From IMG/VR virus record IMGVR_UViG_3300045303_000152, positions 32,001-96,000 of that record: a DNA stretch of 64,000 nt. One strand, 5' to 3'. The DNA is from a virus. The notes under the pieces were generated by a model. That model was not told where the DNA came from, made no database searches, and saw only the letters and a list, made by a program, of their open reading frames with translations. The translations under genes and the position numbers were made by a program. Positions 30,901-58,448 of this stretch are shown one piece after another (position 1 is the stretch's first letter; each line of letters begins with the position of its first letter).

Positions 30901-31650
30901 ATGGCCGACTTCAAGGTACAAAATCTACGGGTTGCGAGTATAGGCTTTCCAGTCATTCGCCTTCGCAAGATCAACGATCAAAATGTTGCCGCTTTAGCTT
31001 CTTCCATGAAGCGAATTGGACTTCAACAGCCAATCATCGTTTACCATGCCACGCGCGGGGCGATGGGGTTTGAGTTGGTCGCTGGTAAGCATCGGTTGCT
31101 GGCAGCAAAGAAATTAAAGTGGAAAACCATACCGGGGCGCGTGCTGCCTCACGATCAAGTTAGGCAGGCTACTTTGATTGAGATAGATGAAAACCTTTGC
31201 CGAGCTGAGTTAACACCAGCCGAACGTGTGGCGCACCTTGCCGAGCGTAAGCGCTTATATGAAGAAGATCACCCTGAAACCAAACATGGCAAGGCCTCCA
31301 AAAGTAAAGGCGCAAAGTTTGCGCCTTTATTTAAGGATAAAGCTTTTCATAAAGATACAGCAGATAAAATTGGTAGGTCAGCGCGAGCAGTTCAACTTGA
31401 CGCAGAACGTGGCGCAAAGATAGCGCCAAAAGTGCTTCAACGTATTCAAGGCACAGCTCTTGATAAAGGGGTACATCTCGATACATTGAAAAACTTGAGT
31501 ACTAAGGAACAGCATAAGTACGTGGACGATATGTTTCGTAAACCAAAAGAGCCTAGGTTAAAACCAACAGTCCGGTTGATAACATGCCCACGTTGTAAGA
31601 ATTGCCCTGATTGTCACGGCACTCGAAAGATCGAAGTTGAAATCGACTAA
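30901..31650 (+). CDS. ParB N-terminal domain protein with HTH
   Basis: LA.SM..IGLQQPI.V, LVAGKHRL.A.K.L, EIDENL.R.ELT; AT-richer than its neighbours. Confidence 0.85.
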   Translation: MADFKVQNLRVASIGFPVIRLRKINDQNVAALASSMKRIGLQQPIIVYHATRGAMGFELVAGKHRLLAAKKLKWKTIPGRVLPHDQVRQATLIEIDENLCRAELTPAERVAHLAERKRLYEEDHPETKHGKASKSKGAKFAPLFKDKAFHKDTADKIGRSARAVQLDAERGAKIAPKVLQRIQGTALDKGVHLDTLKNLSTKEQHKYVDDMFRKPKEPRLKPTVRLITCPRCKNCPDCHGTRKIEVEID

Positions 31651-36335: not shown

Positions 36336-36932
36336 CTAGGCAGTCGGTGGAGCGCTTTCAATCCGAGCGCGCTTCGCCAAAAAAGCTTCACTGAGTTTGA
36401 AGACTAGCCTCCGGGCCTTTTCACTTTCGTTTGGAATTTGCATCACAGTGACAAACCCGGAGGCTAGCATTCGTTCCTCGCCCTCAGTACGGCGCCTGAT
36501 GTCGGTAACGACCAAGCCATTATCCGTCAGACAGCGTCGGGCGAGATCCGTGTAGGCTTAGATATTATAGTGATGCCCCCATGAGCGGAAGGATACTATC
36601 AAGTCGACGGGTGGGATCACTAGGTTCGGGTCTGCGATGTGCCAATAGCATTCGACGTGCGGCAGCCGAGCTACGAAGTTGTTGTAGCCATCTCTAACGT
36701 CTGACCATGCCTCTGGCACCTTTTCGGTATAGCCGCCGTTGTTACCTGTGTCCTTACAGCTGCCGCCAGTACCATCCATTAAGTGAACTCGACCAATCTT
36801 GTAGTGCTCGGCAATCAGCAAACTTTTGACGGCGCGGCCTGAGCCGATGTCTAACATGGACTGTGGCTTGATATCGGGCAATGCCTCGACAAAGCCTGCG
36901 AAGGTCTTTTGAGCCCTGTACAAACCCGACAT
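36336..36932 (-). pseudogene. Class I SAM methyltransferase paralog interrupted by an in-frame TAA
   Basis: LDIGSG, HLMDG.G, SWGHHY. After TAA (36558-36560) the frame continues AYTDLARRCLTDNGLVVTDIRRRTEG..GF..IP..S.K, aligning with the C-terminus of 38128-38763. Confidence 0.8.
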
Positions 36933-37767
36933 GGTTTTCCCTCTACTTAACCCCAACCGTATGTGATTATAGCAAACCCTCAACCAGTGAGCAAGGAGTG
37001 ACTATGATCTTCCCAATCGAAAGCAGGCTGTACATGGAGAATGACAGGTTTATGCTGCAATGGCGCGGCCATCAGTACGTCGGAAGTGGAGCTGGCGGCG
37101 GCGGAGCCGGCAGTGGCGGCGGTGGTCCGGCGAACACTAGCGAGTGCGGTGGAACGGTCGACTTAACCTCACACATCGAAGGGATAATTCGCCACGTACT
37201 GGACTCGTACTTCACGGGCAAAAGGCCAACCTGACATAAGCAAGGAGTTACCTCAATGCGTCTAATTCTACCCATCGTGCTGCTAGTGACGAAAGTGTAC
37301 GAGATCTATGAAGCCTGCAAGCTCAGATGCCTCAAGCTGAGGAGGGGACGATGAAAACTCGTGTTATATGGGAGGTAATGATTGCATGGAAACATCCATG
37401 CAAAGGTGTTGAGTACGAAGTGTATTACATAACCAGCCAATGGGAGTTAGTGGTACTTATAGATAAATGCACCGATCCTTTCTATTTATCAATGCAAATA
37501 GCCTAATATTAGGGTTGTCTAAGCAAGGGGCAATATGCTAGGTCTTACCCGACCATCGAGGGTTTAGTAGGAGGGACTAAGATGAGCAGCAAGGTACTCG
37601 ATCTCTATAACGCAGCTTCGCCGTACTTGGCCAAAGCTTGGGCTTGGCTGGAGCAGGCTGCCGCGCAAGTATTCATCTGGGCAAAAACCTACACCCATGC
37701 CACCATGTTCATCATTGGGTTCTTCTTAGGCTTGCTCGCTAGTCGCTTCATCTAAGGAAAGTAATAA

Positions 37768-38127: not shown

Positions 38128-38763
38128 ATGCAAATTATCGAAGGCATACACTTCCCTCAGCCGGTGCTGGATCACTTGAATGCAATTGCGCCCACGTGGG
38201 CGCAAACATTGATTGACCGAGCGTGGATGGCTTACATCACTATGGAGAAAGCCCTTAACCACGCAGTCGAGCGGAATGAAGTCAAAACCCTGCTCGACAT
38301 AGGTGCTGACGCCGGCATGATTGATATTCTGCTGGGCGCCACCTCACAATTCCCCCAACTGACCGACATTTATTTGCTTGACGGCGATGGCACAAGCACG
38401 CGCCTCACTGAGAAGTACAGCGCAGAGCAGGTAGCCTGGAACAACGTGCATATGGGCGTCGAGCTGGTGAAGGCTAACGTTAGCTCCACCATTGCCGTGC
38501 ATGCCGTGAAGCCAGACCCGAGCTTGATACTGCCTCAAGCCATGGATGTTATAATCAGCCTCAAGTCGTGGGGGCATCACTATCCCGTCGAGGTGTATCT
38601 CGAGTTCGTGAAGCATAACTTGGCTGCAACCGGCGTCGTGCTGCTCGACATCCGCGAAAATACTAACGGCCGCCAAGTGTTAGAGGCTAACGGCTTCAAG
38701 GTAGTCGAGTTGATACCTGATAGATCCTCAAAGTGCCAACGTATGTTACTAAGGCGGAACTGA
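38128..38763 (+). CDS. Class I SAM methyltransferase
   Basis: LLDIGADAG, YLLDGDG, DVIISLKSWGHHYP, LLDIR. Confidence 0.8.
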   Translation: MQIIEGIHFPQPVLDHLNAIAPTWAQTLIDRAWMAYITMEKALNHAVERNEVKTLLDIGADAGMIDILLGATSQFPQLTDIYLLDGDGTSTRLTEKYSAEQVAWNNVHMGVELVKANVSSTIAVHAVKPDPSLILPQAMDVIISLKSWGHHYPVEVYLEFVKHNLAATGVVLLDIRENTNGRQVLEANGFKVVELIPDRSSKCQRMLLRRN

Positions 38764-39003
38764 AGGGGTAAATCAAATGTCAAGATACCTTTACCCTCGT
38801 GAAGAGCGAGGCACTAACGTCGAGCTACCAGCTACTCTCGCTCAATGGAGGGCTAATGTCGCCTATCGCTGCAAGCTGTGTGACACGGTAGTATGGACCA
38901 ACACGAAGATCGAGCCGGTCGACGTACCCATCACGCGGGTTGAGCTGTTCAATTTCAAGATCGTGAAGCCTGCAGAACCTACTAATTCATGGAGCTTGCA
39001 GCG

Positions 39004-39639
39004 ATGCGTATCAACTGGACTGAAAAGTCAGTAGAGTATTTGAACCGGCACAATAAGCAGGGCGACGATAACTTTGCCCTGTTCGCTAAGCAGCAGATCA
39101 GAGCTCAGAAGCGCCTCGACGACATAGCACGGGTTGTCGATGAGTGGAGGCCAACTCGCTCGCTCGACATCGGGTGCGGGCTGGGCGTGATTGATATCCT
39201 ACTTGCCGATCGCTATGATCTGGCTCACATTCACTTGCTCGACGGCGACGGCAGCAGCCCTATTCAGCACGACTATCAGTCTGACATGCAGCCGTGGAAT
39301 GACGTGTTTGCGGCAGCCGAGCTTGTGCAGAAAAACGTGGGTAAGGAAGTATCGGTCTACCCTCATTTGGTAGTGTCAGCGGGTGAGTCCATGGCTTCGA
39401 TGGCCAAGGAGATTGGCTGGCTCGACATGGTGTGTAGCTTCAAGTCGTGGGGCGTCCACTATCCCGTCAGCACCTACCTGCAATTCGTGCACGAGGTTTT
39501 GCGCCCTGGGGGTTTGCTGGTCATCGACATTCGCGAGGAGCGTGGCGATGGTGACAAGAACAACCAAGTCGAGCAGGCTGGCTTTCGGCTCGTGAAGCAG
39601 TTGGACGCGCGAGTTCGCACGTTCAGGAGAGGCATATGA
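39004..39639 (+). CDS. Class I SAM methyltransferase
   Basis: LDIGCGLG, HLLDGDG, SFKSWGVHYP, LRPGG, IDIR. Confidence 0.88.
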   Translation: MRINWTEKSVEYLNRHNKQGDDNFALFAKQQIRAQKRLDDIARVVDEWRPTRSLDIGCGLGVIDILLADRYDLAHIHLLDGDGSSPIQHDYQSDMQPWNDVFAAAELVQKNVGKEVSVYPHLVVSAGESMASMAKEIGWLDMVCSFKSWGVHYPVSTYLQFVHEVLRPGGLLVIDIREERGDGDKNNQVEQAGFRLVKQLDARVRTFRRGI

Positions 39640-40526
39640 AAGTCGGCTTCTTTTGCTCAAAGCGCCCTCGCTGCATTGAGTTCGCAGAGCTGTTTCGATT
39701 TGGCGTGCAGCGGTGCGGCGACGAGTTAGCTATCAGACCGGTGCTGAAAGCTCATGGCGATCCTCATGAGGTTGATGGGGAAATAGTACCTGATGTGGAT
39801 GTAGCGATCATCAATGCAATCCTGCACCGCAAAGCTTTCAAGACCATGTACGATGCCGGCATTCCAGTTGTGTACATCGACAAGGCTTATAATCGGAATT
39901 GGGACTGGCGGCGTGTCAGCATTGGCGCGCACCAGCCAACGCACTACCTAGGCTTTAGAGGCAAGCGTGATGGACGCCGAGTACAGTTCGGGTGGGAACC
40001 TGCAACGTGGCGCCGCAAAGGTTCGCACGTGTTGCTAGCGTGGTCAGATAACCGCGATCATGAGTGGCGCGGCTGGCCCCCGCCGGAAGTTCATGTCAGA
40101 CCTGTCATTATCGGCTTGCAGCATTTCACCGACCGCAAACTCTACTATGGCGCCAAGCCGAACTATCATCCAAGTGCTTCAATCACTAGCCTACTCGACA
40201 TTCGCAATCTAACCCCTGATGCACAAATCTCTGATTACTTTACGGGTTGTCATGCGTTGGTAACTCCCGGTACCAGTGTGTGCTTGCAGGCTATGTTGGT
40301 AGGTATTCCTACCATCGTGCTCGCTGATGCCATAGTGCGCAGCATATCCTCTACATGCATTTGCCAGATCGAAAGCCCGTACCTAGCAACCCAACATGAG
40401 CGCATTCAGCTACTCAATGATCTTGCTTACTGTCAGTGGCATAAGGGGGAGTTTGCCGATGGCACAGCTTGGTTCGATATTCGTGACCAGTTAGAGGAAG
40501 GGGTAGGAGTCAATGTCAAATCGTAG
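39636..40526 (+). CDS. Glycosyltransferase-like protein (GT-B, capsule-synthesis-like)
   Basis: IDKAY, RVS, ALVT..TSV...AM..GIP, C-terminal LAYCQW...E...G.AW; paralog of 41996-42868. Confidence 0.6.
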   Translation: MKVGFFCSKRPRCIEFAELFRFGVQRCGDELAIRPVLKAHGDPHEVDGEIVPDVDVAIINAILHRKAFKTMYDAGIPVVYIDKAYNRNWDWRRVSIGAHQPTHYLGFRGKRDGRRVQFGWEPATWRRKGSHVLLAWSDNRDHEWRGWPPPEVHVRPVIIGLQHFTDRKLYYGAKPNYHPSASITSLLDIRNLTPDAQISDYFTGCHALVTPGTSVCLQAMLVGIPTIVLADAIVRSISSTCICQIESPYLATQHERIQLLNDLAYCQWHKGEFADGTAWFDIRDQLEEGVGVNVKS

Positions 40527-41303: not shown

Positions 41304-41999
41304 ATGATTACGGTAACGCAAACCGAGCTCTATGCTCATGTGTGCAGTGGGGTTCATGGGGCGAAGTTGTCGACCTACCCATTCACGCACATCAGCATGA
41401 GGAACTTCCTGCCGCAGTTTCTGTACGGGCGGCTTATCAATTCACTGCCGGCGCCTGAGCTCTATACCCCGTTGAGCGATACTCGCGCGCAATTCGTATT
41501 CACGCCCGAGAACCAAGCGAAGCTGCCGGCCGATACGGTCGGAGTTTGGATGGACCTGCTCAAAGTGTTCAATGAGATTGGGTTCAAACAGACCATGTTC
41601 AACAAGCTGGCCAGCGGGTTGAAGCATCGCTTTGGCGATAAGACCCTCGACGACATCGACTGCGACATGGATATCAGGTTGATGCGTGACACGGCTGGCT
41701 ATGGCATTCTGCCTCACTGCGATACCATGAAGAAGATAATCACGATGCAAATCTACCTGCCGGCCACCGATCGCTATATGGATAGCGGTACGGTCATGTA
41801 CAAGAAAGACGTAGTCGCTGATGGTGAGGAATACGTTGAGGTAGTGCGCTTTCCCTTCATACCGAATTTCAGCTATGCATTCGTCGTCAACAATAAGGAG
41901 CCTCACCAAAGCTGGCACGGGGTAGAAACTCTGCCACCTGATTTCCCCGGCGCGCGCAACAGTCTGCTTGTGATGTTCAATGCTGTAGGTGGTAAATGA
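41304..41999 (+). CDS. 2OG-Fe(II) oxygenase
   Basis: PF.H....NFLP, HxD in PHCD, IYLP, GT, distal SWHGV, RNSL. Confidence 0.88.
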   Translation: MITVTQTELYAHVCSGVHGAKLSTYPFTHISMRNFLPQFLYGRLINSLPAPELYTPLSDTRAQFVFTPENQAKLPADTVGVWMDLLKVFNEIGFKQTMFNKLASGLKHRFGDKTLDDIDCDMDIRLMRDTAGYGILPHCDTMKKIITMQIYLPATDRYMDSGTVMYKKDVVADGEEYVEVVRFPFIPNFSYAFVVNNKEPHQSWHGVETLPPDFPGARNSLLVMFNAVGGK

Positions 42000-42868
42000 A
42001 ATTCGCCTATCATCTGCGAGGCGAACGCCCTCGACAGAAGCAACTGTGTACTGCATTGCAAGCCGGCGCTGCCAAGCATGGGGATGAGGTAATCCCCATC
42101 GTTGGCTACCTAGGCCCAGAACCTAACGTCGATGGCGTGATACTGCTAGGCGTCAGCGGCCTTCACCACAGAATAAGCAACCGCATGGTGTACGATGCTT
42201 ATCTCGCCAAGGGTAAGCGAACGATGCTGTTCGACAAGGGCTATGTGCGGAAGGACAGTAGCGACCGCGACTACTTGCGGGTGTGCGTCGATGGGTTCCA
42301 GCCACTCAGCTACTTCATGAACACAACCAGACCCAATGACAGATTTAAGCAGTTGGGTATCAAGCTAAGGCCCTACGCCACCAAAGGCGACTACTTCTTG
42401 CTGGATGGTGTCAGTCAGAAGTACTGCGCTTGGCATGGCATCGACAGTCACCTTGCCTGGGGCTTGAGCGTAATTGAGAAGATCAGGGCACACAGCAACC
42501 GCCCCATCGTTTACCGGCTTAAGAAGTCAGCGGCGAACTACAAGGCTCTGCGCGACATGCTGCGTACGACCATATCGAAGCGTGATCTGGCTGACGATAT
42601 GAAACGCGCCATGATCGTCATCAGCCACGGCGGCAATCTGGGTTGGGATGCCATGATGAATGGTCGCGCTCACTTTGCTATCGGCCCGAGCATTGCTAGA
42701 AGGGTAAGCGAAACCGACTGGGATAAAATTCACACGCCGTATGTACCTAGTGAGGCAGAGCGCTATCAGTTGATGTGCAATGTTGCGTACTGTCAATGGA
42801 CCGTGGCCGAGCTAGCGAGCGGTGAGGGATGGGCAGTCATCAACCAGCAGTTAGAGGAAACCAAATGA
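41996..42868 (+). CDS. Glycosyltransferase-like protein (GT-B, capsule-synthesis-like)
   Basis: FDKGY, RV...G.QP, DRF..LGI, RPIVYR, VAYCQWT..EL..G.GW. Confidence 0.6.
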   Translation: MKFAYHLRGERPRQKQLCTALQAGAAKHGDEVIPIVGYLGPEPNVDGVILLGVSGLHHRISNRMVYDAYLAKGKRTMLFDKGYVRKDSSDRDYLRVCVDGFQPLSYFMNTTRPNDRFKQLGIKLRPYATKGDYFLLDGVSQKYCAWHGIDSHLAWGLSVIEKIRAHSNRPIVYRLKKSAANYKALRDMLRTTISKRDLADDMKRAMIVISHGGNLGWDAMMNGRAHFAIGPSIARRVSETDWDKIHTPYVPSEAERYQLMCNVAYCQWTVAELASGEGWAVINQQLEETK

Positions 42869-43146
42869 GAGTAGAACTGTGGCGGGGCATTTATAAGTTG
42901 CAGGAAGAAATGGGTGACCTACAGCAGCTACTAGGCAAGCTTGGGGCATTTCCAAGCGAGCACCCTAGCGGTGAGGATACTGTAACTAAGGTATGGGAAG
43001 AGGTTGCTGATGTTCAGGCAGCCCTTGTTTACTTTAGGCGGCACAATGCCCCGCCCACTCAAGAAACCTATATTGTGAAACGGATGACACATAAGCTTGA
43101 GTTGTTCGAAACGTGGAACTTGAGCGGGGTAAAACCAAATGAGTGA
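42865..43146 (+). CDS. MazG-like nucleotide pyrophosphohydrolase
   Basis: KLQEEMGDL.Q..GK and EEVADV motifs. Confidence 0.7.
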   Translation: MRVELWRGIYKLQEEMGDLQQLLGKLGAFPSEHPSGEDTVTKVWEEVADVQAALVYFRRHNAPPTQETYIVKRMTHKLELFETWNLSGVKPNE

Positions 43147-46511: not shown

Positions 46512-47147
46512 ATGAACGTTTATGACGAACTGACTGGCGCCGTGAAACTCAGTCAGAAGAAGGGCGAAGCCGATCAGGCGCACTTGAGGAAACTGGTCGA
46601 AAAGGCTAGCGAGCTATCTGACAAAGCGTGGGAAGGCTTGTCGGGCAAGGCTCAGACTTGGGTGAACTCGGCAGTCGATGCCGTGCAGGCCCAAGAGGAC
46701 ATTCCCGAACCGGCCGGCTTTGGCCAGCCCGACGATGACGACGAGGCCGAAGAGGAGCAAGAGACTGTTGAAGCTGCCGACGATGACGAAGACGCACCCC
46801 CAAGCAAAGGAGCTAAGACTGTGAAAGCCAAGGAAGCGAAGAAGGCCAAGGGCAAGCCGGCGAAGGCTGCCAAGGCTGCCAAGGGCAATGGCAAGGCAAA
46901 GGTTGCTGCCAAGAAGAAAGAGGGTGGCGCCAAGCGTGGCCGGGCAGCTCGGCTGTTCAAAGATGATCAGCGCATCACCGTGCTCAGCAAGAAGAACCCC
47001 AAGCGCGAGGGCAGCGGCGGCTACGAGCGTTTCGAGCTCTACTCCACCGGCAAGAAGGGCATGACTGTCAAGCAAGCGCTCGATGCCGGCGTCACCAGTG
47101 GCGACCTGAAGTGGGACAGCGAGCACAAGTTCATCAAGATCGACTGA
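46512..47147 (+). CDS. Acidic and Lys/Ala-rich protein with C-terminal NPKR domain
   Basis: Paralog of 14921-15271; AGGAG RBS. Confidence 0.8.
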   Translation: MNVYDELTGAVKLSQKKGEADQAHLRKLVEKASELSDKAWEGLSGKAQTWVNSAVDAVQAQEDIPEPAGFGQPDDDDEAEEEQETVEAADDDEDAPPSKGAKTVKAKEAKKAKGKPAKAAKAAKGNGKAKVAAKKKEGGAKRGRAARLFKDDQRITVLSKKNPKREGSGGYERFELYSTGKKGMTVKQALDAGVTSGDLKWDSEHKFIKID

Positions 47148-47222
47148 GCCTACACAGCTAGCTCTGCCTACACATGGTGGCTTCATCTCCGGGTGAAGCC
47201 ATCACTGTATGAAGGACACAAG

Positions 47223-48080
47223 ATGATAGAACTGCCCCCAAAAAACGTTGCAGCCCTATGCAAGTTCGTGATCGAGCGGCAGCGTATCTACACTCGTCGG
47301 CTTGCCGGCAAGTCGAAGCCTTGGACCGACGACCCGATATTGCGGCAATATAGGTTCTGCAACATTTACCGTGAGCAGGATAAGGTCACTAAGTGGATCG
47401 CCTACAACTGGCGCAATCCGAACAACATGCACACAGACTTGTGGTTTGCCATGTTGGTCGCCCGCTACATCAACGAGCCCGGTACACTCAAGTTGCTACC
47501 GTTTCCCTTGCCTTGGAACCGGCTCAACTTTCACGATGCCGTGAGTGCTCGCAAGAAGGCTGGGCTGACGGTATACAATGCGGCTTACATCATTTCGACG
47601 GGCGGGCAATCTGTACCCAAGCACGAGTACCTGGGCAACTTCTTTGATAAGTTTTGGTGGATGCGAAAGCAAATTCGCCCACGCGAAGGCGATACCCTGG
47701 CCAATTTCAGCGAGCGGCTGGTGGCGGTGCAGGGCATGGGCAAGTTCTTTAGCGGGCAGATCATCGCTGACGTAAAGTATGCTGAAGGCAGTACCTTGCG
47801 CAAAGCCGACGATTGGTGGACATTTGCTGTGTCAGGCCCCGGCTCGAGACGCGGCCTCAATCGGGTTTGCAACAACCCCGTCGATCAGGGTTGGAATGAG
47901 GGAGATTGGCATGCGCACCTCAGTACGCTACGTCGTGCGGTCAATAAGGAGATCACAACGAAGGGTTTGGAGAAGCTGCATGCACAGGATCTACAAAATT
48001 CGCTATGTGAGTTTGACAAGTATCTGCGAGTCCAAAAAGGTGAAGGCCGCCCTAAGCAAAAGTACGATGGTATGGCGTAG
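47223..48080 (+). CDS. aGPT-Pplase1-type (5-hmdU-kinase-associated helical) DNA hypermodification protein
   Basis: ERQ.IY..R..G...PWTDDPIL..YRFCNIYRE.D, G.G.F..GQI..D, GPGS.RGL, QNSLCEFDKY.R. Confidence 0.85.
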   Translation: MIELPPKNVAALCKFVIERQRIYTRRLAGKSKPWTDDPILRQYRFCNIYREQDKVTKWIAYNWRNPNNMHTDLWFAMLVARYINEPGTLKLLPFPLPWNRLNFHDAVSARKKAGLTVYNAAYIISTGGQSVPKHEYLGNFFDKFWWMRKQIRPREGDTLANFSERLVAVQGMGKFFSGQIIADVKYAEGSTLRKADDWWTFAVSGPGSRRGLNRVCNNPVDQGWNEGDWHAHLSTLRRAVNKEITTKGLEKLHAQDLQNSLCEFDKYLRVQKGEGRPKQKYDGMA

Positions 48081-48169
48081 CTTTTCGATTGAGGATCGGA
48101 CATGCGCCATCGGCGCGGTGTTCTGGCTGTGGTGTTCGATCGGCTACTTGGCTGGTCAAGTGGGGTAGA

Positions 48170-49030
48170 ATGGACCTGATCGTAATACCTACTTGGGGGC
48201 GGGCGAAGCGGCAGCAAACTTTGGCTGCCCTCGAGAAAACAGATGTTGTGTATACCCACAAAGTAGTTCTACTTGTGCGGCCTGAGGAAGTGGCAAAGTA
48301 CCGTCACCCAAGCTATAAAGGCAAACGCATTAAGTCAGCGACTATGAAAGAGATTGACGTGGTGGCAGTGCCAGAAAACTGCGAAGGTATAAGTAAGAAG
48401 CGAGCCTATGCCTTGACCACGCTGGCAAAGCAGTACGACGCCAAGTATCTAATGATGCTCGATGATGACCTGTCATTCTGTCATCGGCCTGATTTGCGTA
48501 AGGCAGATATGCCCTATATCAACGCTGACTCTTACGGCATGCACTGGATGATCGAAACTATCACCGAGCAATTAGAAAAAGGGTATGCTCATGTCGGGTT
48601 GATTTCTAGGCAGGCCAACCGCAAGCTAGGTGTTAGGTGGCAGAAACCCGGTCGATTGATGAATGCCTATGCCTACAATGTGCCAATAATTTCTCAGCTA
48701 ATACGCAAGCACAAATTAGTGCTAGGTCGCTTGCAGTTCATGGAAGACTTTGATTTGACGTTACAGCTATTGCGCCTTGGTTATCCCAATCGCATCAGTT
48801 GCCAATTCGCCTGGACCACAACATCGAACCTAAATGGAGGTTGTAGCAGCTATCGTACCGCAGAAGCACAAGCTGAAGCCGCGCGCAAGCTGGCCAAGCT
48901 GCACAAGCCTTTTGTGCAAACGGTAGAAAAGCAGGCCAAGACCTGGAAGAATTCGTTGACTACCCGCGTCGATGTGCGGGTAGCGTGGAAGAAAGCCTAT
49001 GAGGCTAGTAAGGGAGGTAAACGTGGCTGA
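48170..49030 (+). CDS. GT-A glycosyltransferase, TET-associated / base-J glucosyltransferase-like
   Basis: IPT.GR, MLDDDL, EDFD.TLQLL..GY.N, GGCS. Confidence 0.8.
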   Translation: MDLIVIPTWGRAKRQQTLAALEKTDVVYTHKVVLLVRPEEVAKYRHPSYKGKRIKSATMKEIDVVAVPENCEGISKKRAYALTTLAKQYDAKYLMMLDDDLSFCHRPDLRKADMPYINADSYGMHWMIETITEQLEKGYAHVGLISRQANRKLGVRWQKPGRLMNAYAYNVPIISQLIRKHKLVLGRLQFMEDFDLTLQLLRLGYPNRISCQFAWTTTSNLNGGCSSYRTAEAQAEAARKLAKLHKPFVQTVEKQAKTWKNSLTTRVDVRVAWKKAYEASKGGKRG

Positions 49031-49668
49031 TACTTCTAAGGAACCCACCCTAAAGGACTTCACCTTGGGGGAGCTGATGGTACTGCACAACCAACAGCTA
49101 ATTGCGCTGGCGCTGGCTAAGCTTTTGGCAGATCAAAACTTATTAGGAACGGCAGGTGCGCTTAGAGCTGGAATACAAACTGCACCAAGCAAGTAGGGTA
49201 TAAACCAATGGCAGATACAAAGGACTTTTCGCCGGCTGAGCAGGCGATACTACACAATCAGCAACTTCTCATGCTAGGAGTGGCTAGGCTTTTGGTAGAG
49301 GTGGACTGCAACTTACTGGCAGCTAAAATCCAAAGAGAGTTCATAACCGCGCCAGATTTTGTGGCGCTGGACGATACAGCTCGAGAGTTCGCGTTAAAGG
49401 GAGACTAGCAATGAGCTTGAAGGATGATCTCATAAAACTGCGCGACCAGCTAGCCACAGATTATCATCATTGTACCGGCTTGCGCACTATAGCTGCTGAT
49501 GATCTCGTGCAAACATTAGGTGAGGTGGCGGCAGATATGCTGCCCGAGTTTGCTGCACTCGATGAAGCAGCGCAAGAGTTCGCATTGAATGAGGCGTGTC
49601 CAGAAGGCACCATTATAAGTTGTAGCCCCGTTCGCCTAGTAGAGTAACCAGTAACCGGAGTACCCCAA

Positions 49669-50328
49669 ATGAAGCACGCTGATATCTATGGAAATGCTAG
49701 GTTAGCCGGCAGCGTTAAGAGATACCACGCCCAACCCTATTTGACGACGCAAACCGTGGGCGAGCACACGTGGCAAATCTTTCGCATTTACACAACCATT
49801 TGGGGTGAAATTCCGCCCCATGTGACGACGGCGATTATCTGGCACGATGCCGGCGAGCTGTTCGCGGGCGATACTCCCTACCCAGCCAAAAAGGCTTCGC
49901 CGGGGTTGCGTGGGTTGCTCAAAACTTTGGAAATTGATGGCATCGAGCAAATGGGTGGGCCGTGGAACCCCGACGGCAAGCTCACGACCCTTGAGCAAAT
50001 CAAGATCAAGATTTGCGATAACCTCGACATGCTTGAGCACGGCTTGGTCGAAATGGCGATGGGCAATCGCCTTATGGAGCCTGTCACCAACGTGACTTAT
50101 GCGTGGCTCATTGAAACCCTCGACTGGGATAATGATGCGATACCTCACCTCGATAAAGACTATGCCATTCGTTACCTGCTCAAAGTCCGTAAAGCGGCGC
50201 GAACGTATGGTATACCCAACGAGGTTTTCATCATCGAGAAAAATATACCCCTCGCTGCTCAGTTGACCAAGCTGGCCGCAGTAACCCAACCGCCAGGAAC
50301 CCCCGTAGTTTTACCAGTCAACATCTAG
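49669..50328 (+). CDS. HD-domain 5'-deoxynucleotidase (YfbR-like)
   Basis: VKRYH, TVGEH, HD..E...GD.PYP.K, K.CD.LD. Confidence 0.85.
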   Translation: MKHADIYGNARLAGSVKRYHAQPYLTTQTVGEHTWQIFRIYTTIWGEIPPHVTTAIIWHDAGELFAGDTPYPAKKASPGLRGLLKTLEIDGIEQMGGPWNPDGKLTTLEQIKIKICDNLDMLEHGLVEMAMGNRLMEPVTNVTYAWLIETLDWDNDAIPHLDKDYAIRYLLKVRKAARTYGIPNEVFIIEKNIPLAAQLTKLAAVTQPPGTPVVLPVNI

Positions 50329-50360
50329 CACGCATCAACCCATTCAATGGAGCATAGACA

Positions 50361-50864
50361 GTGGATATCATCAAGGCAACGGGTGGCCACCCAAATCAAT
50401 GGACGTATAGAGACGCACCCGGCTTGATATGGATAAACACGGTCGCTCTTAAATACGAGGGCAATGCTTGTCTTAAATGGCCGTACAGCATGGTTAAGGG
50501 AGGGTACGGGCAGCTAACTGTGAATGGTAAGTGTTGGAAAGCTAATAGATTTTTATGCATCTTAGCCTATGGAGAACCCCCGACTAACAAACATCAAGCA
50601 GCGCATACGTGCAAAACCAAGGGATGTATGACCAAGAAACATTTAGGTTGGAAAACTCCAGCCCAAAACCAGCGTGATCGAATTAAAGATGGTACTGATA
50701 GTAAGGGAGTACGCAATGGTAGAGCCAAACTAACTTTGCGCAACGTAAAGGAGATTAGACAAGCTAAGGGCAAAGTATCGCAAAATCGGCTTGCGGTACT
50801 TTTTGGCATTCACCAGACGACAGTAAGTAAAATACAGCGCAACCAACTTTGGCAAGGAGGGTAG
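50361..50864 (+). CDS. HNH (His-Cys type) endonuclease
   Basis: C..WP, GYG, AAHTC...GC....HL.W.T...N..D, AKLT, C-terminal HTH; AT-rich. Confidence 0.85.
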   Translation: MDIIKATGGHPNQWTYRDAPGLIWINTVALKYEGNACLKWPYSMVKGGYGQLTVNGKCWKANRFLCILAYGEPPTNKHQAAHTCKTKGCMTKKHLGWKTPAQNQRDRIKDGTDSKGVRNGRAKLTLRNVKEIRQAKGKVSQNRLAVLFGIHQTTVSKIQRNQLWQGG

Positions 50865-50869
50865 TACCT

Positions 50870-52000
50870 ATGGATGTAATAAGAAGTACCAATGTTAATG
50901 AGGCGTATCTCAAAGGGTTGCACCTAATTGCAACCAAAGGCGTGCTCGAGAAATCGCGCGCCGGCGACGTACTGGTAGTCCCCAATCCGGTCGTCACGCA
51001 ATACAATTACCCAATGGAGCGGGTGCTGTTCGACGTGACCCGTGATGCTAACCCCTGGTTTCATTTGATGGAAGCATTGTGGATGTTGATGGGCCGCAAC
51101 GATGCCACATGGCTGGACCGCTTCGTCAAGGACTACTCGAAGCGGTTCGCTGAGGATGATGGTACCCAGTGGGGTGCCTATGGCCAGCGGTGGCGCAGTC
51201 ACTTTCTTTCGACCAGCATGGAGTCATATGAGGAAGGCCCTATTGACCCGCTATTTGACCAACTGTCGGAGGTGGTCAGGTTATTGCACAAGAACCCCAA
51301 CGACCGGCGCGTGGTGCTACAGATGTGGGACCCCGAGTACGACCTGGGCAAAAACACGAAGGATGTACCGTGCAACCTTTGCGTGCTGCCGCGCGTGGTG
51401 AACAAAAAGCTCGACATCACCGTCTTCTGTCGCAGCAACGATGCCATCTGGGGTGCGTACGGCAGCAACGCCGTTCACTTCAGCATTTTGCAGGAATATC
51501 TTGCCGCGCGGTTGGGTGTAGGAATAGGCACGTATTACCAGATTAGCAACAACTTTCACGCTTATAAGAACGTGTTCGAGGCTAAGACCAAGCACCTGAT
51601 TATCGACCCTGCTGGACCAACCGGGCCGGCGCCCACGCCGATAGGTAAGAGTGAGTTCGTGGTGGCGCCTGCTTGGTACAGGCCAGCTGATACGTTGCAA
51701 TGCCCCTACTACTTCCACACGGCGAAGCCAACGCCCATCGTGACTGCCGGCGACACGTTCGACGATGACTTGATCCAGTTCTTCAGCGGCGATCACCCGC
51801 CGATCAAGTACTATCACAACAGCTTTTTCTCTGAGATCGCCATACCGATGTACTACAGCTTCAAGGCGTGGCGAGATAAGGATTTGACTGGCGCCTTGCA
51901 GTGGCTTACGCGCATGCCTGAGCCAAATGGCGATTGGCGCCTTGCATGTCAACAGTGGTATGATCGGCGCCGTTATGCTGGAACTAAGGTTCAAAGTTGA
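50870..52000 (+). CDS. Thymidylate-synthase homolog, probable dUMP hydroxymethylase
   Basis: RDANPWFH..E.LWML.G.ND, GAYG.R.R, DRR.V, catalytic PCN, RSND..WGAYG.N..HF, N.H.Y. Asn at the dUMP-specificity position. Confidence 0.88.
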   Translation: MDVIRSTNVNEAYLKGLHLIATKGVLEKSRAGDVLVVPNPVVTQYNYPMERVLFDVTRDANPWFHLMEALWMLMGRNDATWLDRFVKDYSKRFAEDDGTQWGAYGQRWRSHFLSTSMESYEEGPIDPLFDQLSEVVRLLHKNPNDRRVVLQMWDPEYDLGKNTKDVPCNLCVLPRVVNKKLDITVFCRSNDAIWGAYGSNAVHFSILQEYLAARLGVGIGTYYQISNNFHAYKNVFEAKTKHLIIDPAGPTGPAPTPIGKSEFVVAPAWYRPADTLQCPYYFHTAKPTPIVTAGDTFDDDLIQFFSGDHPPIKYYHNSFFSEIAIPMYYSFKAWRDKDLTGALQWLTRMPEPNGDWRLACQQWYDRRRYAGTKVQS

Positions 52001-52002
52001 AC
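51989..52002. promoter_or_regulatory. Palindrome copy 7
   Basis: gaac-taag-GTTCAAAGTTGAAC overlapping the stop codon of the synthase gene. Confidence 0.65.
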
Positions 52003-52313
52003 CGGGGCTCTAACTCAGGAGACAGGGTGATGACCCGAAATAATACTATCTTACTGTGCCTAGCGATCAACGTTGTAGTGAGCCTAATAGTGCTAGGCGG
52101 TTGCGATCCTCGACTGTGGCCTGATCCTACCAAGGAGAAGCAAGAGAAGCAGGCGCAAGTAGTTGCCGGCCGTGACAACGAGGGCTTGAAGATACGGGTG
52201 GACGACCTTGACCATCGGGCTAGGGATGAGGCAACGGCGGTTGACAAACGCTTTAGGGAACTAGAGCGTCGCATCGAGCGATTGGAACAGGGCCTGCCCG
52301 CAGTGCGTCAATA

Positions 52314-52327
52314 GTTCAAAATTGAAC
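52314..52327. promoter_or_regulatory. Palindrome copy 8
   Basis: GTTCAAAATTGAAC-gagg-gttcta. Confidence 0.7.
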
Positions 52328-52671
52328 GAGGGTTCTAGTTATGATAACCAGAAGAAAGCTGCTTTACTGGCTCGGCCTAGCGCCGGCTGCTTCAGTTCTG
52401 CCAGTCGACAAGTTCGGCTCGGCTAACGTGCTGTTCGATGGACCAACTGAGAATATTGGCAAAACTATCCAATACGTTCAATACGTCGACCCTACTAAGT
52501 GGACTATACCTGAGGATTGGAATAAGGTTTACATTGAGTGCGTAGGTTACGGGGGTGGAAATGGTGGCGGTGGGGGTAATGCAACGAGAATGGAAATACG
52601 GCGTGGGTCAGGCGAAAGCACCACGACTGGTATTGGCGGTGCAGGTAGAAAGTTAGCTAAGGGAGAACCCG

Positions 52672-53145
52672 ATGTCAGCGAATGATAGGCAGGTAGGTGG
52701 GAGCCACTACAAAGGCAGTTACGAGCATTGGGATTTTGTGACCAACGTTGGTATGTCTTATTTACCAGCGCAAGTTTGCAAGTACCTGAAGCGCTGGCGT
52801 GACAAGAACGGCCGTGAGGACGTCGAAAAGGCTGGGCACTTCCTCGACAAAATGATTGAGGTGGCACCTATTCTAATTTTGCAAAGGCCAAATATTCCCG
52901 CTGACTACATCAATAGTGAGGTTGATAGCTACTTGCACGCCAATGGCATTAAAGGTGAAGAAGCGGCCATCACTTCTATACTTGCGCATTGGTCTACCAA
53001 AAGCCATCTGCAAATGGCCAAGTGCTACATCGAGACCTTGGTAATGAAGATACCCCAAGGGCACGCTACCATTAAGCTTGGTGGAGGCGGCGGCCACGCT
53101 TCACGGCCCGACAGCGATGAGAGCGTACATGGAAATAGATCGTGA
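52672..53145 (+). CDS. DUF3310 (T7 gp1.7-like nucleotide kinase) protein
   Basis: QVGGSHY, KY..RW..KNG.ED..KA.HF. Confidence 0.85.
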   Translation: MSANDRQVGGSHYKGSYEHWDFVTNVGMSYLPAQVCKYLKRWRDKNGREDVEKAGHFLDKMIEVAPILILQRPNIPADYINSEVDSYLHANGIKGEEAAITSILAHWSTKSHLQMAKCYIETLVMKIPQGHATIKLGGGGGHASRPDSDESVHGNRS

Positions 53146-53623
53146 GGCATTGCTGGCGGCAATGACCTACAACAAAAAGTCTGGTATTTGCCGCTGGCGA
53201 ACCACTCGTAAAGGAGTGGAGAAAGTTAATCAAGTGGCTGGCTATGTCGATAAGCAAGGTAAGCGCTGGATACGATTTAGCAATGGTAGGTATAGATCTA
53301 CTCATCTTATTTGGTTTTACGTGACTGGTACTTGGCCTCCAGTACTTGTCGATCATGAGGATCTAAACGTGTCAAACGATAAATGGAGAAACTTACGTTT
53401 AGCAACCCATGCGCAAAACCATTGTAACCTAAGAAAGAGTAAGCGTAACACCTCGGGTTACAAAGGGGTATCCTTTTGTAAGAAGAAAAATAAGTTTGAG
53501 GTACGTATCAATTTTGAGGGGAAATGCCACCGCCTGGGTTATTACAAAACTGCTAGGCTAGGTCACGCCGTTTACAAGAAAGCTTCGCAACGTTATCATG
53601 GTGCGTATGGGAGGATAAGCTAA
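53129..53623 (+). CDS. HNH-AP2 endonuclease
   Basis: VDH.D....ND.W.NLRLAT..QN..N, NTSGYKGV, LGYY, HG.Y; AT-rich. Confidence 0.88.
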   Translation: MEIDREALLAAMTYNKKSGICRWRTTRKGVEKVNQVAGYVDKQGKRWIRFSNGRYRSTHLIWFYVTGTWPPVLVDHEDLNVSNDKWRNLRLATHAQNHCNLRKSKRNTSGYKGVSFCKKKNKFEVRINFEGKCHRLGYYKTARLGHAVYKKASQRYHGAYGRIS

Positions 53624-55766: not shown

Positions 55767-58448
55767 ATGAGCTTCTTTCCTATACCTGAAAAGGTAAGCA
55801 AACAAACAGCGGCTAAAGCCGACATTAAGATGCTCCATACCCTGGAGTGTCAAGCCTGCCCGTTGTCGCAGATCAAGGGTAACAAACACCCTGACATGCC
55901 GGCAACGGGCGTCAGTAACCCGATGGTATATGCATTGGGCGAGGCCCCCGGCAAGGATGAGGATATACGCGGCCGGCAGTTCGTAGGCAAAAGCGGCCAA
56001 CTGCTTAGAGACTTGCTCATTGACATTATAGGCACCGATTACAAAAACTACTTTCGTTGGAACAACACTGTTCGCACCCGACCGATTGACAATGCCACAC
56101 CAACTTGGCAGAGCATCGAGTGCTGCCGGCCTAGCATCGTAAGGGATATCGAACAAAGCAAGCCGAAGGCTATATTTGGATTTGGCAACATACCGCTATC
56201 GTGGCTCACGGGGTATTCTGGTATCTATGCCTATCGCGGTCGCTGCATGCCCGTTAAAGTAGGCACGCACGTTTGCTGGTACTTCCCCATGCTGCATCCA
56301 GCGGCGATACTGCATGGCGTCAAAGGCTATGACCCCGACGACGATGACGATGGCAGCGATTACAATCAATCCGATCGCGAGTTCATCAATGAGGACCATC
56401 GCATACTCAAGTTCGATCTCATTAAAGCCCTGGCGTTGCTCGACAAGCTCGGGCCACCTATGATCCATTCAGCTGACGATGCCTTGAGCGGCATTGATGT
56501 GATGGATAAGTGTGACGATCAAGCCCTCGATGTCATTGAAGAACAGTTGAAGCTGTACGGCTCAAAGGTAGTAATCGGCATCGACTATGAGACCGACGCA
56601 CTGCGACCGTACAATCCCGACCGGCGAATACTAACCGCCGCCGTCAGCGATGGGCTCGGTGCGATCACCATTCCATTCGATCACCCTGAAGCGAGCTGGA
56701 CCCCCAAGCAGCGTGAACGCCTCGACCGCATTTGGATCAACTTCCTCACCACGGCCACAGCTATCAAAGCGGTACACAACCTGCAATTCGAGCTGGAGTG
56801 GACTGGCCATCGGTTCGCCGGCGACTTGCTCAAAGCCGGTAGGTGGGAATGTACGATGGTTCAAGCGTCGATCATCGACCATCGCTATAAGGGCACCAAG
56901 CCGAGCCCACTGTCGTTAGAGTTTCTGGTGCTGCAACACTTCGGCTTCAACCTGAAGAAGCTCGCAGCCGTCGAGCGGCACAACCTGATAAACACGCCGT
57001 TGCCTCACGTGCTCCAATACAATGGATTGGATGCCAAGTATCATGCGTTGCTGTTCAAGCGTCAGCACTCGATTATAAGGAATGAGAACCTACTCGTTGC
57101 CTACAAGCTCGCCAGCCGCCGCGTGCCCACGTTGGTTATGAGCCAGCTCAAAGGTATTCCTGTATCACAGAAGCAAGTCGAGGTGCTGCACGCCAAGTAC
57201 GCAGATCGTATAGAAACAACCTCAAAGCAGATCGCCGTCAACCGCACCGTCAAGCGGTTCAAGAAAGAGTACAAATTCGACTTCGACCCCGGCAAGCATT
57301 GCGTGAAGCTGTTTCACGACATGCTGCAACGTAAGGAGTGCGAGGTATTCGACAAGAAGAAACGTGATGCCAAAACTTGGTGGGTGGGTGATAAGAAAGT
57401 CAACAAGATAAGCTGCGATGAAGATGTGCTCAAGCAAATTGGCGGCGAGCTGCCAGAGCTAATCATTCGCTTGCGTAAGGCACAAAAGCGCATGGGTACT
57501 TACATTCTACCCATGCGTGAGGGCAGCGGAATACTTTGGCCCGGTAGCTATCTCCATCCGGTTTACAATCATACCTTCACCGATACCGGCCGGCTGAGCG
57601 CTGAAGAGCCCAACGTTCAAAACTACCCCAAGCGTGATGGCGAGGCCAAGGAGGTTCGCAAGGGCATCGTCGCTCGCAAAGGCCGTGTGATTGTCGCCAT
57701 CGACTACGGGCAAATAGAAGCTCGCGTCATCGCCATGTACACGAAGGATAAAACCTTCGTCAAAGCGTTGTGGGAAGACTACGACGTTCATATGGAGTGG
57801 GCCGAGCGCGTAGCCTATGCGATGCCAGGGCTAGTCGGCGGCAAGCAGTACCTTAAAGACAAACCCACGATGAAAAAGTTTCGCACGGGCATCAAAAACG
57901 AATGGACATTCCCACTGTTTTTCGGGGCCACGCTTGAGTCCGTTTGCACCTACCTGACCGAAGGCAACGATCACGACTGCAAGGTAGAGCCCGGTCAACT
58001 CAAAAAGGTTCATGCCGATTTCTGGAAGCAGTTCGGCGGCGTGAAGGAATGGCAGGAGACCCTGCGCGACTTTTATGAGGAGCATGGGTATGTAGAAACC
58101 TTCACCGGCCGGCGCCGTCACGGGCCTATGAGCTTCAACAAGCTAATCAATGCACCCGTGCAAGGGTTCACTGCCGAGCTAGTGATGGACGGTATGTGTA
58201 GGTTAAGCGAAACAAATGACCCGCTGCTGCCCCCTGAAATTCAAATCCACGATGACTTGACGTGGGTAAGCGTGCCCGAAAACAGGGTGGATGAATTGGC
58301 TGACAAGGCGCTAGATGTGCTGCTCAACCCGCCCGCGCCGTTCATCGAGCATGTCAACGTACCGATCACAATGGAGCTTAGCGTAGGCAAGAACTGGCTG
58401 GAAATGACCGACATAGGCGTGTTCAAATCAAACGAGTGGAAGCAATGA
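55767..58448 (+). CDS. Family A DNA polymerase with N-terminal family-4 UDG-like domain (SPO1-type)
   Basis: C..CPL, GEAPG..ED..G..FVG.SG, HPA; exonuclease DYET, HN..F, YN..D; polymerase TGRLS...PN.QN, DYGQIE.R, NAPVQG, IHDD. Confidence 0.95.
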   Translation: MSFFPIPEKVSKQTAAKADIKMLHTLECQACPLSQIKGNKHPDMPATGVSNPMVYALGEAPGKDEDIRGRQFVGKSGQLLRDLLIDIIGTDYKNYFRWNNTVRTRPIDNATPTWQSIECCRPSIVRDIEQSKPKAIFGFGNIPLSWLTGYSGIYAYRGRCMPVKVGTHVCWYFPMLHPAAILHGVKGYDPDDDDDGSDYNQSDREFINEDHRILKFDLIKALALLDKLGPPMIHSADDALSGIDVMDKCDDQALDVIEEQLKLYGSKVVIGIDYETDALRPYNPDRRILTAAVSDGLGAITIPFDHPEASWTPKQRERLDRIWINFLTTATAIKAVHNLQFELEWTGHRFAGDLLKAGRWECTMVQASIIDHRYKGTKPSPLSLEFLVLQHFGFNLKKLAAVERHNLINTPLPHVLQYNGLDAKYHALLFKRQHSIIRNENLLVAYKLASRRVPTLVMSQLKGIPVSQKQVEVLHAKYADRIETTSKQIAVNRTVKRFKKEYKFDFDPGKHCVKLFHDMLQRKECEVFDKKKRDAKTWWVGDKKVNKISCDEDVLKQIGGELPELIIRLRKAQKRMGTYILPMREGSGILWPGSYLHPVYNHTFTDTGRLSAEEPNVQNYPKRDGEAKEVRKGIVARKGRVIVAIDYGQIEARVIAMYTKDKTFVKALWEDYDVHMEWAERVAYAMPGLVGGKQYLKDKPTMKKFRTGIKNEWTFPLFFGATLESVCTYLTEGNDHDCKVEPGQLKKVHADFWKQFGGVKEWQETLRDFYEEHGYVETFTGRRRHGPMSFNKLINAPVQGFTAELVMDGMCRLSETNDPLLPPEIQIHDDLTWVSVPENRVDELADKALDVLLNPPAPFIEHVNVPITMELSVGKNWLEMTDIGVFKSNEWKQ

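Follow-up and report, generated by a model that had tools for sequence, protein, structure and literature searches.

A putative thymine hypermodification module that pairs a predicted deoxyuridylate hydroxymethylase with a candidate DNA glycosyltransferase in a viral contig without a recognisable 5-hydroxymethyluracil kinase

The window analysed here (64,000 nucleotides, bases 32001-96000 of the linear IMG/VR viral contig IMGVR_UViG_3300045303_000152, which measures 109,752 bp at a CheckV completeness of 85%) carries at positions 46512-53145 a putative thymine hypermodification module, in which a PF18723 protein (HMUDK_hel, formerly aGPT-Pplase clade 1; hereafter HEL) and a TAGT-family GT-A glycosyltransferase are found together with a homolog of thymidylate synthase (TS). 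To our knowledge, the thymidine hypermodification pathways that have been worked out (M6, PaMx11, ViI, phiW-14, and the diaminopropane pathway of an Acinetobacter phage) all begin by phosphorylating 5-hydroxymethyluracil (5-hmU) in DNA. The window module and at least 75 related loci combine a predicted hydroxymethylase core with a glycosyltransferase and are devoid of the kinase, which points to a second, kinase-free route to sugars on thymine. The reading that we favour, and hold to be moderately probable, is that 5-hmU would be made before replication and then glycosylated without the help of a kinase. The components and some loose associations between them are already known: GT-A enzymes adjoining TS homologs have been remarked (bioRxiv 10.1101/2023.12.21.572611), as has aGPT-Pplase1 without a kinase (PMC13697223). 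In the literature we found neither a statement of the tight TAGT-HEL-TS triad and its exclusivity with the route through kinase and amino-acid:DNA transferase (AADT), nor a report of kinase-free sugar-on-thymine chemistry in a phage.

An earlier reading of the window, made from its letters without database searches (the original prediction), had named an aGPT-Pplase1-type gene, a GT-A glycosyltransferase, an HD nucleotidase, a TS homolog and a DUF3310 gene in this range, and our profile searches recover all five, the HD and DUF3310 genes with scores close to the Pfam cut-offs. All genes in and around the module lie on the + strand. When the region was compared by megablast with 50,697 phage records, none matched, and no near-identical deposited relative was found.

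The TS homolog (50849-52000; PF00303 4.9e-22, phrog_5131 1e-101) is the only one in the contig. Its diagnostic residues were read in E. coli ThyA numbering according to the rules given in PMC13326640, by which Asn177 goes with deoxyuridine monophosphate (dUMP) and Asp177 with deoxycytidine monophosphate (dCMP) specificity, hydroxymethylases have an acidic residue instead of Leu143, and 5-hydroxy-dCMP synthases have Asn instead of Asp169. Aligned with ThyA, the homolog keeps Cys146, Asp169 and Asn177 and carries Asp at Leu143, the latter being part of a K-D-V-P-C motif that places it three residues ahead of the catalytic Cys; alignments with PDB entries likewise place Asn at the position that is Asp in the CMP hydroxymethylase MilA. 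The same signature (Asp, Cys146, Asp169, Asn177) is present in M6 gp58, PhiJL001 gp24, a Rhizobium phage homolog, phiRSL1 ORF230 and MW202897, and more generally in 58 of the 59 TS homologs of HEL loci regardless of module type, the remaining one having Thr in first position. From end to end the homolog is 40% identical to M6 gp58, a C-terminal extension of ~100 residues included, and the alignment starts at the Met at 50870. The DNA modification of M6 derives from 5-hydroxymethyldeoxyuridine (5-hmdU) (PMC8989533). On account of the residue signature, the homology with M6 gp58, and the origin of the M6 base, we read the TS homolog as a predicted dUMP hydroxymethylase, and the uracil-specific hydroxymethylase character assumed by the original prediction is thereby supported at the level of diagnostic residues. 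Two other assignments, 5-hydroxy-dCMP synthase and dCMP hydroxymethylase, were rejected as Asp169 and Asn177 are both kept.

The glycosyltransferase gene (48167-49030) is the sole TAGT member in the contig. Its frame is open back to a TTG at 48089, and its homologs begin at the ATG at 48167, the likely start. The product matches PF20691 with 54.4 bits (cut-off 27.5) and phrog_842 with 5e-37; its structural model (predicted local distance difference test, pLDDT, of 92.6, from 22 homologs) has the GT-A fold, with a Foldseek probability of 1.00 to TarS, TarP and GnT-I, and within its MLDDD motif D99-D100 are invariant and D101 nearly invariant in the family alignment. Searches of PDB sequences with the glycosyltransferase and HEL profiles returned nothing meaningful. 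The partner of this TAGT enzyme is the TS homolog instead of a TET/JBP (5mYOX) dioxygenase. From its family, fold and gene linkage, the protein appears to be a candidate DNA 5-hmU glycosyltransferase. As for the label "base-J-type" that it had been given, the TAGT family and the GT-A fold stand, while the likeness to the base J glucosyltransferase (JGT) itself comes from the literature only, in which the predicted structures of phage GT-A DNA glycosyltransferases are reported to be similar to T. cruzi JGT (bioRxiv 10.1101/2023.12.21.572611).

The linkage of the three genes is tight. Among 80 viral loci holding the nearest relatives of the window glycosyltransferase (33-96% identity; HEL counted within 10 kb), HEL is present in 77, a TS homolog in 77, and all three genes in 75, with no match to the kinase hidden Markov model (HMM) in any of them (0/80). 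The HEL and glycosyltransferase genes share a strand without exception, the median gap between them being -6 nt; they lie no more than 2 kb apart in 76 of the 77 loci, and HEL is upstream in 63 of these 77. A complementary sample of 50 IMG/VR records with close HEL homologs contains TAGT in 18, the kinase family PF18748 in 9 and AADT in 5, and TAGT never overlaps with PF18748 or AADT (hypergeometric P ~0.011 for TAGT versus kinase, a hand calculation without correction for relatedness); of the TAGT-positive records, seven reach a completeness of 95% or more. Gene clustering in 80 IMG/VR loci around HEL homologs (cluster counts given out of 81 HEL loci) uncovered a conserved core composed of an SNF2 helicase, a variable slot, HEL, TS, HD and DUF3310. 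The slot beside HEL is occupied by TAGT, a divergent P-loop kinase, a radical S-adenosylmethionine (SAM)/SPASM enzyme, or one of several families of no known type. In these data HEL goes with the hydroxymethylase core more than with the kinase. Other contents of the slot include a radical SAM/SPASM enzyme with a 433-aa protein, and families of ~320, ~220 and ~470 aa without a Pfam match; these occupants probably represent further undescribed thymidine modification chemistries.

Three cultured phages with complete genomes free of PF18748 carry the triad as well: PhiJL001 with gp19 (HEL), gp22 (TAGT) and gp24 (TS); phiRSL1 with ORF231 (HEL), three TAGT-like genes and ORF230 (TS), all within ORF230-237; and Brevibacterium phage LuckyBarnes with a TS-GT-GT-HEL operon (gp38-gp41; GT, glycosyltransferase). 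Their HEL and glycosyltransferase proteins are only 26-36% identical to those of the window; LuckyBarnes has two glycosyltransferases, and phiRSL1 adds NDP-sugar (nucleoside diphosphate sugar), sulfotransferase and adenosine 5'-phosphosulfate (APS) kinase genes. The latter lie near HEL and TS in Ralstonia phage phiRSL1 (163104-171498) and encode an NDP-sugar pyrophosphorylase-like protein, a nucleotidyltransferase, a galactose-3-O-sulfotransferase-like protein and an APS kinase, a gene set that suggests a sulfated glycan on thymine. MW202897 holds TAGT, the predicted hydroxymethylase and HD without HEL; therefore, HEL is not strictly required alongside such a glycosyltransferase. Our literature search found no nucleoside chemistry for any carrier of the triad, and a full-text search turned up no paper that treats a phage dUMP hydroxymethylase and glycosyltransferase in combination. 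With PhiJL001, phiRSL1 and LuckyBarnes in culture, the sugar route and the role of HEL are open to direct testing.

Six-frame searches of the contig detected no PF18748 (P-loop 5-hmdU DNA kinase, 5-HMUDK; family references M6 gp54 and its Rhizobium phage homolog), PF18724 (AADT; reference M6 gp51) or PF12851 (TET/JBP) at E<=1, and no PF04055 (radical SAM) or PF00291 (PALP-type pyridoxal phosphate, PLP, enzyme) at E<=0.1. The original prediction had recognised no P-loop kinase, PLP enzyme or radical SAM gene in the window, and with the HMM search for 5-hmdU kinases this now extends to the whole contig. Ten open reading frames (ORFs) of the contig contain a Walker A match. Five are identified as UvrD helicase, clamp loader, RecA, DnaB-like helicase, and a DNA polymerase fused to a uracil-DNA glycosylase (UDG) domain (UDG-PolA); two matches fall inside the TS homolog and an Acb1 fusion protein; a 76-aa ORF has no Pfam match; and two ORFs of 614 and 88 aa were left out of the Pfam scan. 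The PF18748-free HEL+TAGT+TS triad occurs in the three complete cultured phage genomes and in seven viral records of at least 95% completeness (CheckV), and because these too are without PF18748, the lack of the kinase is a trait of a widespread module type and not an artefact of an incomplete contig.

HEL itself (47223-48080) matches PF18723 with an E-value of 1.4e-43 and 149.7 bits (cut-off 25) over profile positions 6-277 of 281, the control M6 gp55 scoring 189.9 bits, and is about 32% identical to that protein. Several deposited phages label HEL homologs by the old name aGPT-Pplase1. In SP10 gp186 a kinase is joined to a PF18723 domain (PMC5889632), and fusions of this kind are probably the origin of the Pfam name HMUDK_hel, "5-hmdU DNA kinase helical domain". 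For stand-alone members the name is misleading, as PF18748 is present in only 9 of the 50 close-homolog records, none of them TAGT-positive. A family that Pfam names as a kinase domain is hereby re-framed as a partner of the hydroxymethylase core.

The HEL model (pLDDT 94.4) adopts the fold of the helix-hairpin-helix (HhH) DNA glycosylase superfamily. Its best VIA match is 8z2n (PaMx11 gp46, the glycinyltransferase acting on 5-phosphomethyldeoxyuridine, 5-PmdU), with Z 10.6 and a root-mean-square deviation of 4.1 over 222 aligned residues, followed at Z 9-10 by QNG1 (queuine salvage), Ogg, Mag1 and EndoIII, nearly all of the top matches listed belonging to this superfamily. In profile searches HEL matches PF18723 only, not PF18724. 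Judging from the model, HEL would be a stand-alone paralog, with HhH-glycosylase fold, of the amino-acid:DNA transferases. In gp46, Cys247 attacks C6 of the flipped-out base (PMC11472151), and the context of the catalytic Cys in M6 gp51 reads Q-E-V-E-T-V-L-C-K-W-K. Close HEL homologs contain an invariant Q-D-L-Q-N-x-L-C-E-F-D-K with Cys262-Glu263, of which PhiJL001 gp19 retains L-C-E-W-D-K, and, counted from where the structural alignment ends, Cys262 and Cys247 of gp46 lie at similar distances. By motif similarity and position, Cys262 is likely equivalent to the catalytic Cys of the AADTs. A second cysteine, C46, is also invariant in the close homologs; it is Thr in PhiJL001 gp19. A predicted complex of HEL and the glycosyltransferase scored 0.00, which gives no verdict and speaks neither for nor against binding.

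Taken together, these genes could serve a pathway of the following form. The TS homolog would turn dUMP into 5-hydroxymethyl-dUMP, as its diagnostic residues and homology indicate, with the HD hydrolase, and perhaps the weakly matching MazG-like protein, depleting thymidine (dT) nucleotides, and the UDG-fused polymerase would then make DNA in which 5-hmU replaces T. In a second step the TAGT enzyme, judging from its family, fold and linkage, would move the sugar of an NDP-sugar to the hydroxymethyl group of 5-hmU in DNA, giving a base-J-like O-glycoside without a phosphorylated intermediate. HEL would most likely use a thiol to act on C6 of a flipped-out uracil that carries a substituent at position 5. 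More speculatively, upstream genes at a distance of 4-10 kb (DUF6716-like candidates, SAM methyltransferases, and a 2-oxoglutarate (2OG) oxygenase) might extend or decorate the sugar. From the residue-supported uracil specificity and the hydroxymethylase character of the TS homolog, direct base-J-like glycosylation seems the most economical reading; the data are also compatible with HEL acting before or after the sugar transfer. As to HEL, it is possible, albeit with considerable doubt, that it is no accessory of a kinase but a free-standing thiol-dependent enzyme acting on 5-hmU or glycosyl-5-hmU in DNA, with no phosphorylated intermediate, to give an undescribed nucleoside in place of plain base J, or else that it converts leftover 5-hmU to thymine in all systems of partial thymidine hypermodification. 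Sugar-bearing thymines, if true, would have a bearing on phage restriction resistance and on the under-representation of such genomes in sequencing.

Several observations weigh against kinase-independent glycosylation of 5-hmU. Whatever goes beyond the identities of the genes is inference, and TAGT membership alone leaves the acceptor (base or sugar) undefined; the T6 member of the family, for example, adds a second glucose onto glucosyl-5-hydroxymethylcytosine (PMC13390438). According to PMC4276943, restriction enzymes digest PhiJL001 DNA in the normal way, and because this phage has the triad and nevertheless normally digestible DNA, modification by this type of module may be sparse, sequence-specific or conditional. 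In the contig we found neither a dCMP deaminase nor a recognisable deoxynucleoside monophosphate kinase, and at 85% completeness, or through strong divergence, a kinase could escape detection with PF18748. An hhalign alignment of HEL with two AADTs produced a 12-column local match after the GP motif and left the Cys motifs unaligned, so that the equivalence of the cysteines is not proven. Finally, the near-obligate presence of HEL suggests a pathway that goes beyond one-step glycosylation.

In an unlikely alternative, the Cys of HEL would make a C5 exocyclic methylene on 5-hmU without phosphorylation and add a small non-sugar group, the glycosyltransferase or glycosyltransferases then acting on this linker in the manner of the glycosylated-linker thymidines of SP-15, YerA41 and Carin-5. 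The frequency of HEL in the glycosyltransferase loci and its prevailing upstream position would fit, as would its AADT fold with an invariant Cys in a similar motif and the further candidate tailoring enzymes of the contig; moreover, aGPT-Pplase1 without a detectable 5-HMUDK has been noted in RP13, EP_H11 and IME92, of the group with glycosylated-linker thymidines (PMC13697223). However, a hydroxyl is a poor leaving group and the characterised AADTs require 5-PmdU (PMC8989533), M6 gp55, itself a HEL homolog, is dispensable for glycine transfer in lysates (PMC8989533), MW202897 combines glycosyltransferase and hydroxymethylase with no HEL, and no candidate for a linker-donor enzyme was found.

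The dispensability of gp55 for transfer in M6 would fit a different role of HEL, which we regard as quite improbable: HEL would stand outside sugar attachment and process unmodified 5-hmU, for instance to thymine. Thymine in phiW-14 arises post-replicatively from a 5-hmU-derived precursor common with putrescinylthymine, according to what PMC5889632 relates of Maltman et al. 1980. Such a role would explain why HEL accompanies every type of partial thymidine hypermodification pathway, and it accords with the conserved HEL-TS-HD-DUF3310 core of the 80 loci, the contents of the slot being variable, and with the invariant C46 and C262 of the close homologs. We know of no enzyme to which the formation of post-replicative thymine in phiW-14 has been assigned. 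Against this role, Cys46 is replaced by Thr in PhiJL001 gp19, no reductant-binding motif was sought or found, and the proposal is wholly inferential; it is also compatible with pre-replicative 5-hmU followed by glycosylation, rather than exclusive of it. That the TS homolog makes ordinary dTMP (deoxythymidine monophosphate), with glycosyltransferase and HEL acting on cytosine derivatives, protein or envelope, is very improbable: the reportedly normal digestion of PhiJL001 DNA and the fact that TAGT members are best known from 5-hydroxymethylcytosine systems speak for it, but the Asp at Leu143 and the C-terminal extension are common with M6 gp58, Asn177 rules out dCMP as the substrate, neither TET/JBP nor a second TS homolog is present in the contig, and TAGT, HEL and TS are linked in 75 of 80 loci.

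The proposed kinase-free route shares features with several known systems. Kinetoplastid base J is made by JBP1/2, which hydroxylate T, after which JGT glucosylates 5-hmU; common to both is the proposed last step, in which a GT-A enzyme O-glycosylates 5-hmU in DNA, whereas in the window 5-hmU would be made before replication by the TS homolog and not by a JBP dioxygenase acting on DNA (no PF12851). We know of no HEL-type partner of JGT. The clusters of Pseudomonas phage M6, PaMx11, Salmonella phage ViI and Delftia phage phiW-14 (PMC5889632, PMC8989533) encode pathways with 5-HMUDK and amino-acid:DNA transferase, and the window resembles M6 in having the TS homolog, the HD hydrolase, a DUF3310-like gene and PF18723 in the order of gp55, gp58, gp59, gp61 and gp62. 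It differs from the M6-type clusters in that its contig is without PF18748, PF18724, a PLP enzyme or a radical SAM enzyme and that TAGT fills the variable slot, and the expected product would be a sugar adduct instead of an amino-acid or polyamine adduct. With the T-even and TET-associated systems (PMC8256090) it has in common the PF20691 family and the sequence of a hydroxymethyl pyrimidine followed by sugar transfer, but the base would be uracil (Asn177, not Asp), TET is absent, and the glycosyltransferase is paired with HEL. The group of SP-15, YerA41, Carin-5 and RP13 (PMC13697223, PMC5977210) is similar in its T-modified genomes, its sugars and its UDG-fused family A polymerases; in SP-15, YerA41 and Carin-5 the sugars sit on a pentyl-type linker of undescribed biosynthesis, in contrast to the sugar on 5-hmU proposed here.

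The HD-domain YfbR-like deoxynucleotide hydrolase (49669-50328) has a marginal PF12917 score (26.6 bits, just above the cut-off of 25.9) covering residues 16-94 only, and matches phrog_6047 with 1.6e-27; its place in the gene order is that of M6 gp59, its cluster is found in 33 of 81 HEL loci, and it presumably helps to exclude dT nucleotides. The DUF3310 protein (52672-53145) falls just below the PF11753 cut-off (23.3 bits against 24) but matches phrog_5839 with 2.3e-29, and its cluster, a conserved member of the HEL-TS-HD core, is found in 37 of 81 HEL loci. Its PHROG matches annotated as "nucleotide kinase" extend over the DUF3310 segment only, and we do not claim it as a missing nucleotide kinase because it has no BLASTP similarity to T7 gp1.7, a non-P-loop nucleotide kinase. 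The first gene of the range (46512-47147) encodes an acidic Lys/Ala-rich protein whose cluster occurs in 8 of 81 HEL loci, six of which have it no further than 6 kb from HEL. It has no Pfam match and is similar to phrog_38529 (1.4e-6) over residues 3-83 only; an assignment as aGPT or kinase gene was rejected, there being no P-loop and no family, and the aGPT gene of the module is HEL. Of the MazG-like gene that had been placed at 42.9 kb, a possible NTP pyrophosphohydrolase remains (42829-43146, +), for which phrog_4856 gives a weak match (E 2.8e-4) and Pfam none.

Between the HD gene and the TS homolog lies a gene for an HNH endonuclease with a C-terminal helix-turn-helix (50361-50864; phrog_59 and phrog_1872, ~1e-17), probably a mobile element outside the pathway, that overlaps the start of the TS homolog. 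A second HNH endonuclease gene (53078-53623, +) stands beside the HD-TS-DUF3310 core, and the two look like homing-endonuclease insertions in a nucleotide-metabolism block. Downstream, at 55767-58448 (+), one gene encodes a UDG domain joined to a family A DNA polymerase (893 aa; UDG PF03167 4.8e-16, with PF01612 and PF00476), a type of fusion known from phages whose genomes are T-modified (PMC13697223).

Further candidate tailoring genes, overlooked by the original prediction, form a second set upstream of the module at 36.3-42.9 kb. Two DUF6716-like candidate glycosyltransferases (39636-40526 and 41996-42868, both +) are 27% identical to each other (E 9e-28); the former has no direct Pfam (E<=0.01) or PHROG match and the latter no Pfam match of its own. 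The family of 39636-40526 comprises 707 representatives, of which 20 of 33 sampled match PF20471 (DUF6716, putative glycosyltransferase; best E 6.5e-8), its profile weakly matches GT-B enzymes in their sugar-nucleotide region, and some homologs of the pair carry methyltransferase fusions. Next to them are a prolyl-hydroxylase-like 2OG-Fe(II) oxygenase that is not of the TET/JBP type (41304-41999, +; Atlas feature score 0.97, structural TM 0.90 to 2OG-Fe(II) oxygenase clusters), two paralogous class I SAM methyltransferases with an LDIGxGxG motif and weak PF05175 similarity (38128-38763 and 38989-39639, both +), and a third, shorter paralog on the - strand (36558-36983) that was aligned with these two. 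PHROG scans of the 36-43 kb genes gave no matches, and among the HEL loci these candidates are common only to the closest relative contig. At the right end of the contig, outside the window, are found a 508-aa protein with a Methyltransf_23-like domain (106306-107832) and an FkbM-family methyltransferase (108946-109635; PF05050 5e-23), which may belong to the same tailoring toolkit.

Elsewhere, a single protein (656-1729, -) unites ChaB, an anti-CBASS Acb1 domain (PF23474, 1.9e-38) and an XkdF-type prohead protease domain, and another (20527-21492, +) fuses an ArdC-like anti-restriction N-terminal domain to an MPTase-PolyVal zincin metallopeptidase (PF18818, 7e-49). Phage ParB-dependent T-dioxygenases were described recently (PMC13229309); the present contig, which is without TET/JBP, encodes a protein with a ParB N-terminal domain at 30901-31650 (+; PF02195, 1.5e-9).

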